Source: Treponemataceae bacterium
Lineage (GTDB): Bacteria > Spirochaetota > Spirochaetia > Treponematales > Rectinemataceae
Assembly (NCBI GenBank): GCA_963667725.2
Contig: CAXXHO010000003.1
Span: 1,856,001 to 1,920,000, forward strand
Direction: 5' to 3'
DNA: 64,000 bases
The translations under genes were made by a program, and so were the position numbers. Below the pieces are notes generated by a model. It was not told the origin of the DNA and did not search any database. It worked only from the letters and a program-made list of their open reading frames with translations. Below, in pieces: positions 58,605 to 63,425 of this stretch (position 1 is the first letter of the stretch; each line of letters opens with the position of its first letter).

Positions 58605-58734
58605 GACGGGATAACATGATGGGCAGGATTTACAGATAAGAATTTAGGTAAAGAAAAGAAAGAGCGAAGCGATGCTTTTTCTTTCTTTACCTAAAATATT
58701 TTCCCGTAAATCCTGTCTTTGCGTAAGTCCTGTC
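58605..58734. repeat. Long AT-rich imperfect inverted repeat (REP/MITE-like)
   Basis: GGCAGGATTTAC...TTTAGGTAAAGAAA / TTTCTTTACCTAAA...GTAAATCCTGTC between convergent genes. Confidence 0.7.
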
Positions 58735-59996
58735 TAATTCTTTTCCGCGAAACCCGTCAGCGCGCGGGCGACGAGGTTCGTCAGCGATTCCACCTTCATG
58801 CCCATCGCGTAGTAGTCATTCAGTTCGGTGAGCTGTGTGTGGCAGTTCTCGCAGGCGGTGCAGATGATATCGGCGCGCGCGGCCTTGATCTGATCGACCT
58901 TCACCTTGGCCGACTTCATGCGGAATTCCTGCTCGCCCATCGAAATAAGCCCGCCGCCTCCGCCGCAGCACCAGTTTTCCTCGCGGTTCGGCGTCAGTTC
59001 GACGAAATCGCCGGTGAGGGCGCCGATGACGCGCCGCGGCTCTTCGATGACGCCGCCGTTGCGAGCCAGCTGGCAGGGATCGTGATAGGTGAGACGGCCC
59101 TGAAGCGTGCCCGGCTTAAGGAAAATCCGGCCCTCGGCTATATAGCGGTCGAGAAGTTCCACGATCGACGTCACCTTGAAATCGTGCTTCCCGGACTGGA
59201 ATTTCAGCACGCGAGTGGCCGTGCCGCATTCCACGACGACGACTTCCTTTACGTTGAGGCGGACGGCCTCGTCAACGATGCGTTGGGATATCTTCGCCTG
59301 TTTCTTGGCATCGCCCAGCCAGGCGGCGAAATTGACCGCCTCGAAGTAGCTCAGGGTCCAGTTTTCCTTCGCGGCGTTCATGATGGCCGCGGCCGGAATG
59401 ATGGAGTGCGCGCCCGAGAGCCCGACATAGAGAATGTCGGCGTCCTGGACATCGACGGGGATCGTCTCCCTGCCTTCGGGCGTCGGAGCCAGGGCTTCCA
59501 CCTGGGATTCGAGATTTTTAATGGCTTCCCTGTAGTTTTCGCCCGACTCGACATAGGTCTCGCCCTTGGCGATCGACATGTCGGAGAGCATGGCGAGAAG
59601 CTGGGGCTGCCGTTCCACGCCGATGAGGAGAAGCTTGGCAATGCCCATGACCTGCTGAGTGTCTATGCCGAAGGGGCAGAAGCCGACGCAGCGGCGGCAG
59701 CCCGTGCAGGAAAAGGCGGCTTCATAGGCCTTGTCCATGCCGATATCGCCGAAGGAAATCGTCTCGCCGAGCCAGGGCGCGAATCTGCCCTGAATCTTGA
59801 AATAGCGCTTGAAGAGCTTGCGGATCACCTCGGCCCTGCCGACGGGCGTGTATTTGGTCTCGGGCATCGACGCGTAGACGTGGCAGGCTTCGACGCAGAG
59901 CCCGCAGCGGGCGCAGGTGTCGAGGTAGAGGCGCATGGCCTTGTTGAGCTTGGTCTCGAAAAGGCGCTTGAGATGGCCGGTCGTTATTTCATCCAT
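58734..59996 (-). CDS. DsrK/HdrD-like Fe-S oxidoreductase (two 4Fe-4S motifs + CCG domain)
   Basis: CARCGLCVEAC, CTGCRRCVGFCP, HDPC, CCGGGG, CTACENC. Confidence 0.9.
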   Translation of the reverse strand: MDEITTGHLKRLFETKLNKAMRLYLDTCARCGLCVEACHVYASMPETKYTPVGRAEVIRKLFKRYFKIQGRFAPWLGETISFGDIGMDKAYEAAFSCTGCRRCVGFCPFGIDTQQVMGIAKLLLIGVERQPQLLAMLSDMSIAKGETYVESGENYREAIKNLESQVEALAPTPEGRETIPVDVQDADILYVGLSGAHSIIPAAAIMNAAKENWTLSYFEAVNFAAWLGDAKKQAKISQRIVDEAVRLNVKEVVVVECGTATRVLKFQSGKHDFKVTSIVELLDRYIAEGRIFLKPGTLQGRLTYHDPCQLARNGGVIEEPRRVIGALTGDFVELTPNREENWCCGGGGGLISMGEQEFRMKSAKVKVDQIKAARADIICTACENCHTQLTELNDYYAMGMKVESLTNLVARALTGFAEKN

Positions 59997-59999
59997 GGC

Positions 60000-60737
60000 T
60001 TACCTCCTTCTCAGCATATTCAGCGGCAGGCTGAAGAATGTGTGCACGATCTTGCTGAAGGGCAGAATCATCATGAAAAGTTCGGCCAGGAAGACATGGA
60101 GCACGATGAAATGATAATGCGAACCATGCAGTACGATTCTGGGGTTCATGAAAGTGAAGCTCGAGAGGATGCCGAAGTAGCTGCTGAAATTGGCCTTCGT
60201 CATCACGAAACCATGCGCCGTCCATGAATTCCCCCAGCTAATCATATCCCCCAGAAGGAAGGTGAAGAGAAGGAGAAGAAGTAGGAGATAGTCGGCGGGC
60301 ACCGAGATATGCCTGTTCTCGCCCTTGAATCGCCTGAAAAGAAAGTAGAAGGCGGGAACCGTGACCGAGACGCCGACGAATCCCGCGCCCACCATGTGAC
60401 GGGAAGCCGCCGGCATGATGTTGATGCTTGGGAAGAGGTCCAGATGGCCCAGGATCAGGAAGGCGATGCCCAGATGGAACCACATGAGAAAGAACCAGAA
60501 GACCGGCTTGCGCTTCCTGATCATCGGCATGCCGAAGGTGTCGCCCAGGGCCGCCAGGGCCGAGCGCTTCCTCGCGGGGAAGGTTTTCAGGCTGTAGGCG
60601 GGGGGTGGCGAGGAAAAGATGGAGGCGATCTTCACGGCGATGCCGACCACCATGACGGTGATGGAGATATAGACGAGAGGCACCATGATGAAGTAGTAGA
60701 GGCCATCCAGGAAGAGGGTGAAGCCTGTGGGGGCCAC
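60000..60737 (-). CDS. DsrM/NarI-like membrane cytochrome b
   Basis: About 5 TM helices with His in WFHLG, LGHL, VLHV and PFSKIVH; GTG start. Confidence 0.8.
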   Translation of the reverse strand: MAPTGFTLFLDGLYYFIMVPLVYISITVMVVGIAVKIASIFSSPPPAYSLKTFPARKRSALAALGDTFGMPMIRKRKPVFWFFLMWFHLGIAFLILGHLDLFPSINIMPAASRHMVGAGFVGVSVTVPAFYFLFRRFKGENRHISVPADYLLLLLLLFTFLLGDMISWGNSWTAHGFVMTKANFSSYFGILSSFTFMNPRIVLHGSHYHFIVLHVFLAELFMMILPFSKIVHTFFSLPLNMLRRR

Positions 60738-60746
60738 GGCGAGGCC

Positions 60747-60986
60747 TTACTTTTGTCGCTTCACGTAGAAGCGGATAAGGCCGGAGTCCTGTTTCGTTTC
60801 GAGAACGGCGTTGCCCGTCGATTTAGCCCAGGAAGGGACATCGGCGAGGGAACCCGGGTCGGTGGAGAGCATCTCGACAACCTCTCCCACCTTCATTTTC
60901 GCGACTTCCATGCTGAGCTTGACGATGGGCATCGGGCAGGCGAGCCCTTTGCAGTCGAGCGTCTTCGTGATTGTGTAGTCGGACAT
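60747..60986 (-). CDS. tusA: TusA-family sulfur carrier
   Basis: LDCKGLACPMP, STDPGS..D...W; AAGGAG RBS. Confidence 0.9.
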   Translation of the reverse strand: MSDYTITKTLDCKGLACPMPIVKLSMEVAKMKVGEVVEMLSTDPGSLADVPSWAKSTGNAVLETKQDSGLIRFYVKRQK

Positions 60987-61011
60987 ATATTTCTCCTTAG
61001 GCTAAAAATGC

Positions 61012-61548
61012 TCAAATGAATAGCTGGACGGCGGATTCCTTGGCGTCGGCGAGGAAGGAAGCCACCCCGACGACTTTCAAGCCGGGATAATCGATCATCT
61101 CTTCCATCTTCATCCCCATGAGATCCATCGACATCTGGCAGATATTGATCTCGACGCCCAAGGCCCCGGCCGCTTCGAAAAGCTGATCCAGGCTGGCGAC
61201 GTTTTTTTTCGTCATGAGGCTTTTAAGCATCGCGGTGCCGGCGCCCGCCATGTTCATCTGCGAAAGCTTCAGCTTGTCGCGCCCCTTCGGGAGCATGAAG
61301 CCGAACATCTTGCCCATGAAATCCTTGCCGCCCGCCTTCTTGGAAGGATCGCGCAGGGCGGCGGTTCCCCAGAAGGTATAGAAAAGCACGACTTTCATGC
61401 CCATCGCCGCCGCGCCGGTAGCGATGATGAGGGAGGCAATCTGTTTGTCCAGTTCGCCCGAAAAAACGACCATGGAGAGCTTGTTCTCCATGCCGGGGGC
61501 GGAGTTCACCTTAGCCTTGAGCTCACTGAGCTCTTTTTCGATGTCCAT
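61012..61548 (-). CDS. DsrE2 (DsrE/DsrF/DrsH-like) sulfurtransferase
   Basis: VFSG.LDK, IATGAAAMG, FYTFWG, CQMSMDLMG, GVASFL, LFI. Confidence 0.9.
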   Translation of the reverse strand: MDIEKELSELKAKVNSAPGMENKLSMVVFSGELDKQIASLIIATGAAAMGMKVVLFYTFWGTAALRDPSKKAGGKDFMGKMFGFMLPKGRDKLKLSQMNMAGAGTAMLKSLMTKKNVASLDQLFEAAGALGVEINICQMSMDLMGMKMEEMIDYPGLKVVGVASFLADAKESAVQLFI

Positions 61549-61571
61549 AGAGTGTTTTCCTTGAGAGAACG

Positions 61572-61874
61572 CTAGTTGTCGCCAGCGCGGCAGCTTTCGA
61601 GACAATGGAGGAGTTCGACGAGATGAGGTTGGGCGAGGCGGTAGACGGCGAAGCCGTTTTCCCTGCGGAATTCGACGAGGTTGGCCATGCGGAGGATGCG
61701 TAGCTGTTGGGAGACGAGCGACTGCGGGACGGCGAGCCTCTCCGCTAGATCGCTTACGTGCGCTTCGCCGCCGCAGAGCTGGGCGACTATCAGGAGCCTG
61801 GCAGGGTGGGAGAGGGCTTTCAGTATCTCGGCTGTTTCGGCGGCGCGGAATGTATCATCCTTGAGATCGGCCAT
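61572..61874 (-). CDS. ArsR/SmtB-family repressor with three Cys
   Basis: LKALSHPARL.I, VSQQL..LR...LV..RR; Cys in QLCGG and HCLESC. Confidence 0.9.
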   Translation of the reverse strand: MADLKDDTFRAAETAEILKALSHPARLLIVAQLCGGEAHVSDLAERLAVPQSLVSQQLRILRMANLVEFRRENGFAVYRLAQPHLVELLHCLESCRAGDN

Positions 61875-61893: not shown

Positions 61894-61960
61894 GATATAG
61901 CGATATTATTCTATCGCTATATCTTTATATGACGATATTCCGATGAGGCTTTTGTGTCAA
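61894..61960 (-). promoter_or_regulatory. Promoter and operator array of the ArsR-sulfur operon
   Basis: Minus strand TTGACA-N17-TATCGT; perfect GATATAGCGATA-N6-TATCGCTATATC inverted repeat; ATAT every 8 bp. Confidence 0.75.
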
Positions 61961-61985: not shown

Positions 61986-63425
61986 CTATTCCTTCATGCA
62001 GATGTGCATGGCCGCGGTGGTGAACGCTCTTGGCAGCGCCAGAATGTTGGGCGCGTCGCCGACATATTTCCTCTTCGCGTCGTCGAGCGCTTCCTCGAAT
62101 GATGCCCTTGTTTTCATGCCCATTCCCCGGGCCAAGCCAGGCTTCATGGCGCCGACAATATAGATCGCCGAGCTGTTCATCTCCGCAATATGGGCACAAG
62201 AGACCATCGAAAAGGCATGGAAAGGATGAAAGGCATAGGCGTAGCGATAGAGGTCCGTATATTCCTTGCGCGTCGAGAAGTATTCGGCGTACTTCGCGAT
62301 ATCTGGCAGAATCTGATTGCCGTCCTTCTGGAAAAGATCATACGTTTTTTCATACGAGGGGAATTCCTCCTCGTGCCAGAATCCATTACAGAGTGAGGAA
62401 CAGATGACGACGCAACGATCGCTCAATACGCGCTTATGCCTGAGAATCTGCGCCGAAATCGCCTGCATCATGAGAATCGGATTGGTACCCATTCCATCGC
62501 CGTAGTGAAATGACTGCGGCATACCGAATACCATGACATCGTACTTTTTCTCCGCCCATCGGGCGTAGGTCCGCGTGTCGGCCGAAGCCCAGCACAAAGG
62601 CTGGATGTCCTTCGCGTACCCAGAGAATATCGCGATCTGGTTAGCGTTGGTGTCGAGGACGGCATCGCATACGAAGAACTTCTTCCCCATGCATTTTTCA
62701 ATATACATGCCGATTTGGTCGAATTTTCTCCTCATGAGGCTGTGGGTGCTCGCTGGGGTAAAATCGCTCCTGTGCATCACCTTGGGGTTGTGGTGTTCAG
62801 CGATGCATCGCCAATGCGTGATCCCAGTCGCGCAGTGCTTGTAGCCGCCCGAATAGCCGCCGTAAGGATTGCCCGTCGCGTGGCCGATCAGGACGCAGAA
62901 GTCCGATTCATAGACTTCCTTGTTCACTATCACATGATCGCCGATTTCATCGGAACCCAGATCCACCAGATTGTCATAATCCTCGCTGTCATGATTGGTA
63001 ATCTGCTTTGAATGCCAAAACTCATCGAAGATGCCATCACCCAGCAAAGAGCGGATCTCCTTTTCGGTATTTTTCCGGTGAAGCCCATTGCTGCAAATCA
63101 GTTTTATATCTTTTTTCTCGACTCCTGCCTTATAAAGCTCTTCGATGATGAGAGGAATGGAGATTTTGCGATGGGCGGTCTGCTGAGTCCCGCCCTTAAC
63201 GCGGTCCGGGAACACTATTATAACCTTGCTGCCCTTTTTCACGCTCTCCGAAATCGGTGGAATCCCGATCGGATTCAAAATGGATTTCCTGGTTTCTGCC
63301 ACAATCCGGTCGGAGGGGATTCTCGGCGGATCGGGATAAGTCTCCCCCGGGATGAAGACATCGGTATTTCCATCGGGGAGTTCGGCTTTCATGAATCCCT
63401 GTCCATACTCAAATTCCAATTTCAT
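61986..63425 (-). CDS. LarA (lactate racemase) superfamily racemase/epimerase
   Basis: NPIG, IVFPDR, NGLHR, NHD, GYSGGYK, HPFH. Confidence 0.82.
   Translation of the reverse strand: MKLEFEYGQGFMKAELPDGNTDVFIPGETYPDPPRIPSDRIVAETRKSILNPIGIPPISESVKKGSKVIIVFPDRVKGGTQQTAHRKISIPLIIEELYKAGVEKKDIKLICSNGLHRKNTEKEIRSLLGDGIFDEFWHSKQITNHDSEDYDNLVDLGSDEIGDHVIVNKEVYESDFCVLIGHATGNPYGGYSGGYKHCATGITHWRCIAEHHNPKVMHRSDFTPASTHSLMRRKFDQIGMYIEKCMGKKFFVCDAVLDTNANQIAIFSGYAKDIQPLCWASADTRTYARWAEKKYDVMVFGMPQSFHYGDGMGTNPILMMQAISAQILRHKRVLSDRCVVICSSLCNGFWHEEEFPSYEKTYDLFQKDGNQILPDIAKYAEYFSTRKEYTDLYRYAYAFHPFHAFSMVSCAHIAEMNSSAIYIVGAMKPGLARGMGMKTRASFEEALDDAKRKYVGDAPNILALPRAFTTAAMHICMKE

Follow-up and report, generated by a model that had tools for sequence, protein, structure and literature searches.

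Background

DsrMK-type enzymes are usually viewed as DsrC reductases. For DsrK, a 2026 cryo-EM preprint (bioRxiv 10.64898/2026.08.25.746951) reports that Cys329 is persulfidated and ties His210, Phe258, His331 and Asp500 to DsrC-trisulfide catalysis; a Cys at the Asp500 position is known in some DsrK homologues. The sulfur carriers TusA and DsrE2 have been studied in other settings. In M. cuprina, TusA accepted thiosulfonate (as Cys-S-thiosulfonate) and not persulfide, and DsrE2B was unreactive. Both carriers also occur as domains of a CoADR-rhodanese-TusA-DsrE2 fusion, of which the B. fragilis representative BF638R_0572 is under the control of a MarR and confers diamide sensitivity when lost (PMC6158253). 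This sensitivity points to disulfides as much as to persulfides in the putative role of the fusion. Npsr/CoAPR-type persulfide reductases are grouped with the CoADR fusion among the closest known systems.

Here we analyse a gene cassette that appears to encode a widespread relative of DsrMK, hard-wired to TusA and DsrE2, predicted to lack the DsrC-activating residues and found also without any dsr gene. A first-pass annotation had rested on three premises that it took as established, namely persulfide relay by TusA and DsrE2, reduction of (tri/di)sulfides by DsrMK/HdrED, and persulfide sensing by BigR/SqrR-type ArsRs; two of these are weaker than stated.

Gene organization and regulation

The window is the whole stretch of 64,000 nt that was analysed, all coordinates are positions in it, and the spirochaete genome from which it derives is 97% complete. 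Five open reading frames on the - strand, in the order arsR-dsrE2-tusA-dsrM-like-dsrK-like, are separated by gaps of 23, 25, 9 and 3 nt; the coordinates, co-orientation and close spacing annotated earlier are thus correct. A sigma70-like promoter (TTGACA-17-TATCGT, 10/12 consensus matches) is predicted at 61932..61960 on the - strand. By itself this prediction is weak, because four such sites were observed in the region where 1.5 are expected; TTGACA is found at the equivalent place 5' of arsR in two related loci (L020 and L022). Between the promoter and the arsR start lies a perfect 12-6-12 inverted repeat with arms that are 100% complementary (61894..61923, assigned to neither strand), which is a candidate ArsR operator. 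Palindrome-related half sites of the TATAGCGATA type occur 5' of arsR in L020, L022, L027 and L148. A genome-wide search for more copies of the palindrome gave matches with six mismatches only, one of which, ~90 nt 5' of the NDH-2 gene, was taken as chance. Between the end of the operon and a convergent GH88 gene, a long imperfect stem-loop (58624..58715, neither strand; 42-nt arms, 71% complementary) is a possible terminator, which was not called in a terminator scan.

The regulator (61572..61874, - strand; 100 aa) is an ArsR/SmtB repressor with an HTH_5 Pfam domain above cut-off. It is Cys-containing, as annotated, with Cys34 and a C-terminal C91-x3-C95; among 12 aligned cassette ArsRs, C91 and C95 are present in 10 and C34 in 9. 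Its best PDB matches are BigR and the 6O8K-series ArsR. The BigR/SqrR type to which the annotation had appealed, marked by a pair of Cys in alpha2 and alpha5, is nevertheless rejected, because the position of the alpha2 Cys is occupied by Ala31 and the score against NF040642 (BigR/SqrR) is 70 bits, below the cut-off of 155. In 34 of the 80 related loci a MarR gene lies directly upstream of the cassette, and 33 of these 34 MarRs contain CC. The cassette regulators are Cys-bearing, through either the CxxxC of ArsR or the CC of MarR.

Sulfur carriers and electron-transfer proteins

The DsrE2-like sulfur carrier (61012..61548, - strand; 178 aa; PF13686, DrsE_2 171 bits) has 3PNX as its closest solved structure. 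DsrE2A of the A. vinosum type is defined by two conserved Cys, two transmembrane helices and the NF047629 cut-off; assignment to this type is rejected for a protein with a single conserved Cys (Cys137), one weak hydrophobic stretch and 65.7 bits against the NCBIfam DsrE2 cut-off of 210. Because of such scores, both this protein and the DsrK-like protein (K; 234 bits, cut-off 400) are called '-like'. The TusA-family sulfur carrier (60747..60986, - strand; 79 aa; TusA Pfam 85 bits) has the CPxP motif with the active Cys of its family (CPMP, Cys17), and a tblastn search of the genome gave no second TusA. Residue counts given out of 56 refer to aligned cassette members, i.e. 55 related loci and the window. 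The two carrier cysteines singled out in the annotation, C17 of CPxP and C137 of DsrE2, are each conserved in 56/56. A DsrC-like two-cysteine TusA is rejected, as Cys12 is present in 3/56 only.

The DsrM-like protein (M; 60000..60737, - strand; 245 aa) is a dihaem cytochrome b of the NarI/DsrM family with five hydrophobic segments (Nitrate_red_gam 39 bits) and NarI as top Foldseek matches. Its haem ligands His88, His98, His214 and His232 are each conserved in 56/56 and align with the NarI His, which upholds its earlier description as a His-ligated cytochrome b-like protein. Gly97 stands at the position of the blocking Arg of DsrM-2; the residue before His98 is Gly or Ala in 55/56 and the second residue after it Asp or Glu in 55/56, where canonical DsrM has Arg-His-x-Arg. 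Judged from these residues, M lacks the two arginines that block the quinol site in DsrMKJOP. An open quinol site in M is not established by this, because residues 100-119 are non-helical in the AlphaFold model, so that the uninterrupted TMH3 of DsrM-1/NarI-type quinol-oxidising anchors is uncertain here.

K (58734..59996, - strand; 420 aa) is an Fe-S protein of the DsrK/HdrD family with two 4Fe-4S motifs, the one intact CCG site already noted (C308, C343, C344, C382, C385) and a free Cys257 in ECGTA. Pfam gives one CCG domain at 303-389 and Fe-S dicluster domains, all above cut-off, and 56/56 members have all eight ferredoxin Cys, all five CCG Cys and C257. Apart from DsrK, the scores for TmcB (209 bits, cut-off 735) and HmcF (180, cut-off 750) are also under cut-off. 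K is shorter than canonical DsrK (~420 vs ~540 aa; 24-27% identity) and groups in a clade separate from DsrK, TmcB and HmcF-like paralogues (SH-aLRT 98) in a quick tree that omitted nine fetched rows, eight being cassette K of the same genomes and one split. The equivalents of Cys329 and Glu292 are kept as C257 and E219 (each 56/56). The His331 position (ECGH) is Thr259 in 56/56 (ECGT), the last cluster ligand is Cys (CENC, 56/56) where 7/7 canonical DsrK have CAID or CALD (Asp500), no His is present in the His210 column, and a seven-residue loop with Phe258 is deleted; His210 and Phe258 were placed by alignment and spacing in canonical DsrK, not from the A. fulgidus sequence itself, with offsets of -119, -71 and -37 that are exact in 2/7 and four residues shorter in the other five. 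From this alignment, we conclude that K has retained the one non-cubane cluster of DsrK together with its relay Cys and its Glu, but is without the four residues that the preprint connects with catalysis on the DsrC trisulfide. A PDB sequence search with K returned EtfD only and no DsrK structure; EtfD is also its best structural match.

Distribution and genomic context

The neighbourhood is conserved: dsrE2, tusA and M adjoin K in 68 of the 80 related loci, in several phyla of anaerobes, and nine of the 12 loci without this four-gene core stop at a contig edge. M and K occur without dsrE2 or without both carriers, despite enough sequence, in L066, L072 and L097, and dsrE2 is missing in G037. 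No description of the cassette was found in the literature searched, where a passing mention in a 2011 comparative-genomics review or in bioRxiv supplements is possible; one supplementary file of PMC10504309 gave no TusA/DsrE2/SirA match.

The 97%-complete genome gave no match to dsrC, dsrA, NIR_SIR or another sulfite reductase, which bears out the expected absence of dsrABC. Among 50 carrier genomes, dsrC is absent from 25 and present in 25. The Dsr-free setting proposed earlier thus fits this genome and half of the carriers, and the cassette is not exclusive to it. The idea that TusA or DsrE2 replaces DsrC is partly supported by the missing dsrC and dsrA, the strict neighbourhood, a K without DsrC-specific residues and the fusion of the same carriers to CoADR-rhodanese. 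It is very improbable that the cassette is a spare DsrMK acting on DsrC with accessory carriers: dsrC is indeed encoded by half of the carriers and, in L066, ~1.2 kb downstream of a cassette without dsrE2, and a basal dsrMK-only clade has been described in Deltaproteobacteria and Clostridia (PMC10504309), but dsrC is lacking here and in the other half, the DsrC-contact residues are gone from K, and 7/8 dsrC-positive carriers tested also retain canonical DsrK. Hence dsrMK-like matches in metagenomes need not signal sulfite respiration.

NDH-2 and late menaquinone genes are encoded elsewhere in the genome, in which MqnA/D, cytochrome bd and complex I subunit H were not found. Within the family, UbiA is present in 22/24 genomes, too many for its co-occurrence with the cassette to be informative, and NDH-2 in 20/20 cassette-positive vs 20/34 cassette-negative genomes. 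Haem must be scavenged, since searches of the genome for hemA, ferrochelatase and AhbD gave nothing above cut-off; hemA is present in only 2/10 carrier genomes. The genome also has its own CoADR-rhodanese and a rhodanese, so that the cassette is not the sole candidate persulfide reductase. A YTD cluster (yedE, tusA, dsrE and conserved hypothetical genes) can be rejected, as the genome has no YeeE/YedE match. Reductive cleavage by MK of a carrier-bound S-thiosulfonate or S-sulfonate, derived from thiosulfate or tetrathionate, to sulfide and sulfite would accord with the adduct formed by M. cuprina TusA and with the induction on thiosulfate of the yeeE/dsrE/tusA unit of T. maritima (PMC9431562); with neither a YeeE/YedE transporter nor a sulfite reductase found in the genome, and with the recurrent neighbours in the 80 loci including no yeeE cluster, we consider it improbable.

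The CoADR-rhodanese-TusA-DsrE2 fusion is present in 3/20 cassette-positive vs 20/34 cassette-negative family genomes, a contrast whose Fisher p of 0.002 overstates its significance because kin are not independent. The cassette appears to stand in for this soluble, NADH-driven fusion of most cassette-less relatives, and their near-exclusive distribution makes the function genetically testable. In one locus (L034), the fusion and an SQR-like gene lie directly behind the cassette. In one further genus, dsrE2-tusA is linked to mvhD-hdrL-hdrA-qmoC (3/3 examined). The contrasting distribution of cassette and fusion within the family and the HdrL/HdrA/QmoC linkage are new here. Since the apparently replaced fusion is MarR-controlled in B. 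fragilis and protects against diamide, and a MarR gene also precedes 34/80 cassettes, the substrate might be a plain disulfide, for instance TusA-S-S-DsrE2, TusA-S-S-CoA or a mixed disulfide of another kind, with quinol-driven thiol recycling under oxidative or electrophile stress as in HdrDE. One conserved Cys per carrier suffices for an intermolecular disulfide, and K has an HdrB-like Cys ligand instead of the Asp of DsrK. We nonetheless regard this as unlikely, given that heterodisulfide cleavage uses two non-cubane clusters and K has one, that K retains a free relay Cys, and that the fusion includes a rhodanese domain.

Proposed function

We propose, with a probability of about 0.5, that the operon codes for a membrane enzyme of the DsrMK-like kind together with its own sulfur carriers, and that this enzyme would act as a menaquinol:TusA-persulfide reductase releasing sulfide. 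Cytoplasmic polysulfide or other sulfane sulfur would be caught on DsrE2 Cys137 and TusA Cys17, and would modify the ArsR Cys, so that ArsR leaves the palindrome and repression is lifted. Fermentative NADH would reduce menaquinone via NDH-2; M would oxidise menaquinol at a NarI-type site, and electrons would pass through two haems and two cubanes to the non-cubane cluster of K. TusA-SSH would hand its sulfur to K Cys257, the equivalent of the persulfidated DsrK Cys329, where the cluster could reduce it to H2S with two electrons and without any hydrolytic opening of a trisulfide. The outcome would be sulfane-sulfur removal, with an electron sink as a side benefit.

Persulfide/sulfide couples lie roughly at -0.2 to -0.3 V, and the redox potentials favour electron flow from sulfide to menaquinone. 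The forward reaction may be uphill, because menaquinol (~ -70 mV; PMC10861901) is a weak donor for this couple and a NarI-type site would add a charge-separation cost. In the reverse direction, sulfide or carrier-bound sulfur would be oxidised and menaquinone reduced, with TusA being loaded with persulfide (SQR-like) or sulfane sulfur being oxidised further, as by reverse DsrMK/sHdr in sulfur oxidisers. The potentials speak for this direction, as does the match to EtfD, a quinone-reducing relative with the NarI/Fe-S/CCG make-up. TusA/DsrE carriers supply oxidising sHdr and rDsr systems (PMC11094781, PMC4175335), and some Desulfobacterota loci have rhodanese-metallo-beta-lactamase genes, sat and qmo behind the cassette. 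Against it, the quinol sink is unclear with neither cytochrome bd nor complex I subunit H found, the cassette has no LbpA/sHdr or sulfite-handling gene, and the alternative partner in relatives belongs to an NAD(P)H-dependent reductase family; on balance, we hold oxidation to be rather unlikely.

With persulfide reduction as its function, the cassette could account for the reduction of sulfur or the detoxification of sulfane in those fermenters and sulfate reducers that are without Psr/Sre, and the four-protein system suits tests of a single non-cubane cluster and relay cysteine on plain persulfide. [quoted passage not shown] Its menaquinol:TusA-persulfide reductase would give Dsr-free fermenters a minimal electrogenic chain, in which electrons from NADH pass via NDH-2 and menaquinone to sulfur or polysulfide. 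If so, TusA/DsrE2 would be a general 'plug' for three interchangeable electron modules (MK, CoADR-rhodanese and HdrL/HdrA/QmoC), and DsrMK chemistry as it was before DsrC, or as it runs without it, would have a living model in the cassette.

Comparison with known systems

The cassette resembles the DsrMK core of DsrMKJOP, a menadiol:DsrC-trisulfide oxidoreductase (PMC10861901; bioRxiv 10.64898/2026.08.25.746951), in its dihaem NarI-type anchor, its CCG protein with two cubanes and a single non-cubane cluster, the free Cys in ECGx and the Glu292 equivalent. It differs from DsrMKJOP in that it is without DsrC, DsrAB and DsrJOP and is encoded with TusA and DsrE2; relative to canonical DsrK, K has ECGT for ECGH, Cys for Asp500, no His210 and no Phe258 loop, and falls in a separate clade. 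The architecture of cytochrome b and CCG Fe-S protein is shared with HdrDE, HmcEF and TmcBC, and a single CCG site with a free Cys is likewise seen in HmcF and TmcB, whereas HdrD has two CCG sites and the cassette is without periplasmic cytochrome subunits. As in the CoADR-rhodanese-TusA-DsrE2 fusion (BF638R_0572, PMC6158253), TusA and DsrE2 (the DsrE2 domains being 42-55% identical to the DsrE2 of the window) are coupled with a reductase and with a repressor that contains Cys, but the fusion is soluble and flavin- and NAD(P)H-dependent, while the reductase of the cassette is a membrane haem/Fe-S module. The dsrE-tusA clusters of sHdr oxidisers and the YTD cluster of disproportionators (PMC4175335, PMC11094781, PMC13047784) likewise place TusA/DsrE-type carriers beside heterodisulfide-reductase-like or sulfur-handling genes; the cassette, without sHdrABC, LbpA, YeeE and Chp1/2, has a membrane DsrMK-like pair as redox partner.

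Organization of the operon

The first-pass annotation described five co-oriented, closely packed genes, and this arrangement was confirmed: arsR (61874-61572; Pfam ArsR), dsrE2 (61548-61012; DrsE_2), tusA (60986-60747; TusA), M (60737-60000; NarI-gamma), encoding a NarI/DsrM-like dihaem cytochrome b, and K (59996-58734) lie on the minus strand with gaps of 23, 25, 9 and 3 nt. The description of an Fe-S protein with one CCG site also holds for K, to which Pfam assigns an Fe-S dicluster and one CCG domain. DsrK was the top NCBIfam family for K, yet scored below its cut-off (234 of 400), and TmcB and HmcF fell even further beneath theirs. A predicted promoter-like site (TTGACA-17-TATCGT) and a perfect 12-6-12 inverted repeat (61894-61923) are located 5' of arsR, and half sites resembling this palindrome occur 5' of arsR in four related loci. 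The promoter region separates arsR from an upstream LarA-family (nickel-pincer racemase/epimerase) gene (61986-63425, minus strand), which is beneath every NCBIfam subfamily cut-off and absent from the recurrent neighbours; in the two closest named relatives its position is occupied by a hybrid-cluster (prismane) gene immediately 5' of arsR (L020:3359-5029).

Conservation of the cassette

A scan of GTDB genomes yielded at least 546 relatives, and the best 80 loci were analysed; their record titles place them in Spirochaetota, Bacillota, Desulfobacterota/Deltaproteobacteria and Ca. Eisenbacteria. The neighbourhood, whose conservation had been proposed as a check, is retained: K is accompanied by dsrE2, tusA and M (together, the cassette) in 68 of these best 80 loci. 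Nine of the remaining 12 break off at a contig edge, and L066, L072 and L097 are true exceptions. L072 (2221-10368) and L097 carry a carrier-less M-K pair nested within the cassette clade, that of L072 being surrounded by HdrA-like, MvhD-fused and two more CCG genes. A quick IQ-TREE analysis with 42 rows placed the cassette K sequences in a single clade (SH-aLRT 98; 99 including the divergent second copy, L114), set apart from DsrK, TmcB and HmcF-like paralogues. This second dsrE2-tusA-M-K copy (L114, genome G062) has a K that is 42% identical and retains ECGH; L040 and L048 show the order dsrE2-M-tusA-K with M of the divergent, L114-like type.

The regulator varies, with ArsR in 11/80 loci and MarR directly 5' in 34/80 (33 of those MarR bearing a CC motif), and L040 has a CsoR/RcnR-family gene downstream of K. 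A FadL/TodX-type outer-membrane protein, which might let hydrophobic sulfur in, is encoded nearby in 22/80 loci (e.g. L050:3719-6694, L053:8550-9830), and a rhodanese-like/metallo-beta-lactamase gene in 5/80.

Half of the carrier genomes tested (25 of 50, drawn from the 80) possess dsrC, and a separate canonical DsrK was present in 7/8 dsrC-positive carriers. The dsrABC search suggested earlier returned no match for DsrC, DsrA or NIR_SIR in the window genome (97.0% complete, 6.3% contamination). That the cassette serves as a spare DsrC reductase is highly improbable.

Active site and quinol side

In the available part of a cryo-EM preprint on DsrMKJOP (bioRxiv 10.64898/2026.08.25.746951), DsrK Cys329 acts as persulfide relay, His331 in proton transfer and Asp500 in cluster tuning, while Phe258 opens the DsrC trisulfide and His210 and Glu292 stabilise perthiosulfenate; the DsrMK mechanism was also taken from the accessible text of PMC10861901. 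These residues were placed by spacing on seven canonical DsrK (exact offsets in 2/7, a four-residue shift in 5/7). Across 56 cassette K sequences, the equivalents of Cys329 and Glu292 are invariant, Thr replaces His331, Cys replaces Asp500, no counterpart of His210 exists and the loop bearing Phe258 is missing, with an invariant His197-Ser198 immediately past the deletion. We infer that K is built to accept sulfur on the relay cysteine, not to open a DsrC trisulfide, and would thereby suit a single-cysteine carrier such as TusA. Cleavage of thiosulfonates by the cassette seems improbable.

The Arg-His-x-Arg of canonical DsrM is replaced in M by Gly-His98-x-Asp/Glu, a sequence pattern in keeping with a NarI-like, putatively quinol-oxidising anchor. 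AlphaFold models of K and M were confident (pLDDT 92 and 88), with structural matches to EtfD/HdrB and NarI; in the M model, residues 100-119 are non-helical.

Genomic context and proposed function

By tblastn, no second TusA, DsrE2 or M was found across the window genome, and PF02665 had one match. The only other CCG protein is GlcF-like, with two CCG, and is paired with a GlcD-like FAD oxidase (G000:C5:1178826-1181580; L101:6827-9581). A quinone branch is encoded in a single operon (G000:C3:1835863-1841531; L102:7864-13532), where mqnL, which scores above cut-off, is joined by ubiX and by genes for an MqnP-like prenyltransferase and an SsuA-type ABC transporter; MqnA/D were not found in this genome, and the gene set suggests that a menaquinone precursor is salvaged. 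An NDH-2 (E 8e-68 to PDB 4NWZ) with a C-terminal membrane extension adjoins a polyprenyl diphosphate synthase (G000:C3:2247299-2250415; L170:3300-6416), a pair presumably reminiscent of Ndh2/DmkB of Listeria flavin-based extracellular electron transfer. Cytochrome bd, NuoH, HemA, ferrochelatase and YeeE were not found in the window genome, and AhbD gave a sub-cut-off match only.

We propose, with a probability of about one half, that the cassette is a menaquinol-driven TusA-persulfide reductase. Electrons would pass from NADH through NDH-2, menaquinone, M and K to TusA-persulfide, whose reduction by K would release H2S, and induction would proceed via the Cys-bearing repressor; we infer all chemical steps. 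Thermodynamics casts doubt on this reading, menaquinol being a poor source of electrons for persulfide. Operation in the oxidative direction is unlikely. Further main doubts are the haem pathway not found in the window genome and the M. cuprina DsrE2B, inert in vitro according to the accessible part of PMC4175335.

Cassette and fusion across the family

The window genome encodes a soluble CoADR-rhodanese (CoADR, CoA-disulfide reductase) and an adjoining rhodanese elsewhere. Of the 54 family genomes with a completeness of 85% or more, 20 had K and 47 the DrsE_2 domain; six K-negative genomes had no DrsE_2 match and one more a contig-edge fragment only. DrsE_2 matches of at least 185 bits (23 genomes) were counted as a soluble CoADR-rhodanese-TusA-DsrE2 fusion; Pfam or BLAST confirmed it in 11/23, frame length together with score pointed to it in another 11/23, and score alone in 1/23. 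The fusion occurs in 3/20 K-positive versus 20/34 K-negative genomes (21 counting frameshifted G113; Fisher p 0.002, kin not being independent). Nine genera have the cassette alone, five the fusion alone and three both types; in an earlier sample, one g2 genome without K carried the fusion. NDH-2 is present in 20/20 K-positive and 20/34 K-negative genomes. In an Oscillospiraceae locus (L034:8481-12537), the fusion and an SQR-like flavoprotein lie directly behind the cassette. The B. fragilis fusion is under MarR control and its loss increases diamide sensitivity, as stated in the available text of PMC6158253. Disulfide recycling by the cassette appears rather unlikely, somewhat more so than oxidative operation.

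All six genomes of genus g13 lack both cassette and fusion, and dsrE2-tusA heads an mvhD-hdrL-hdrA-qmoC-like operon in 3/3 examined (L156:3912-11123; also L158, L142/L157). In genus g6 (L136:205-8393, L159), the CoADR fusion comes after a related mvhD-hdrA-hdrA-qmoC-like-dsrE2 unit. Judged by gene content, such units may serve these carriers as a third electron module; K had no match in the spirochaetes bearing them.

Comparison with known systems

No description of the cassette was found in the literature searched, including PMC12243485 and the accessible parts of PMC8528874, PMC13490349, PMC13047784, PMC10504309, PMC8477390, PMC6378623, PMC12998232, PMC9431562 and PMC11094781. PMC10504309, as far as available, reports a basal dsrMK-only clade with seven DsrAB-free assemblies, which may overlap with the cassette. 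The cassette is a real, widespread and apparently so far uncharacterised variant of the DsrMK/HdrDE kind. It probably works like DsrMK, but departs from it on DsrC/DsrAB, at four residues of the catalytic site, in its profile score and by its place in the tree.
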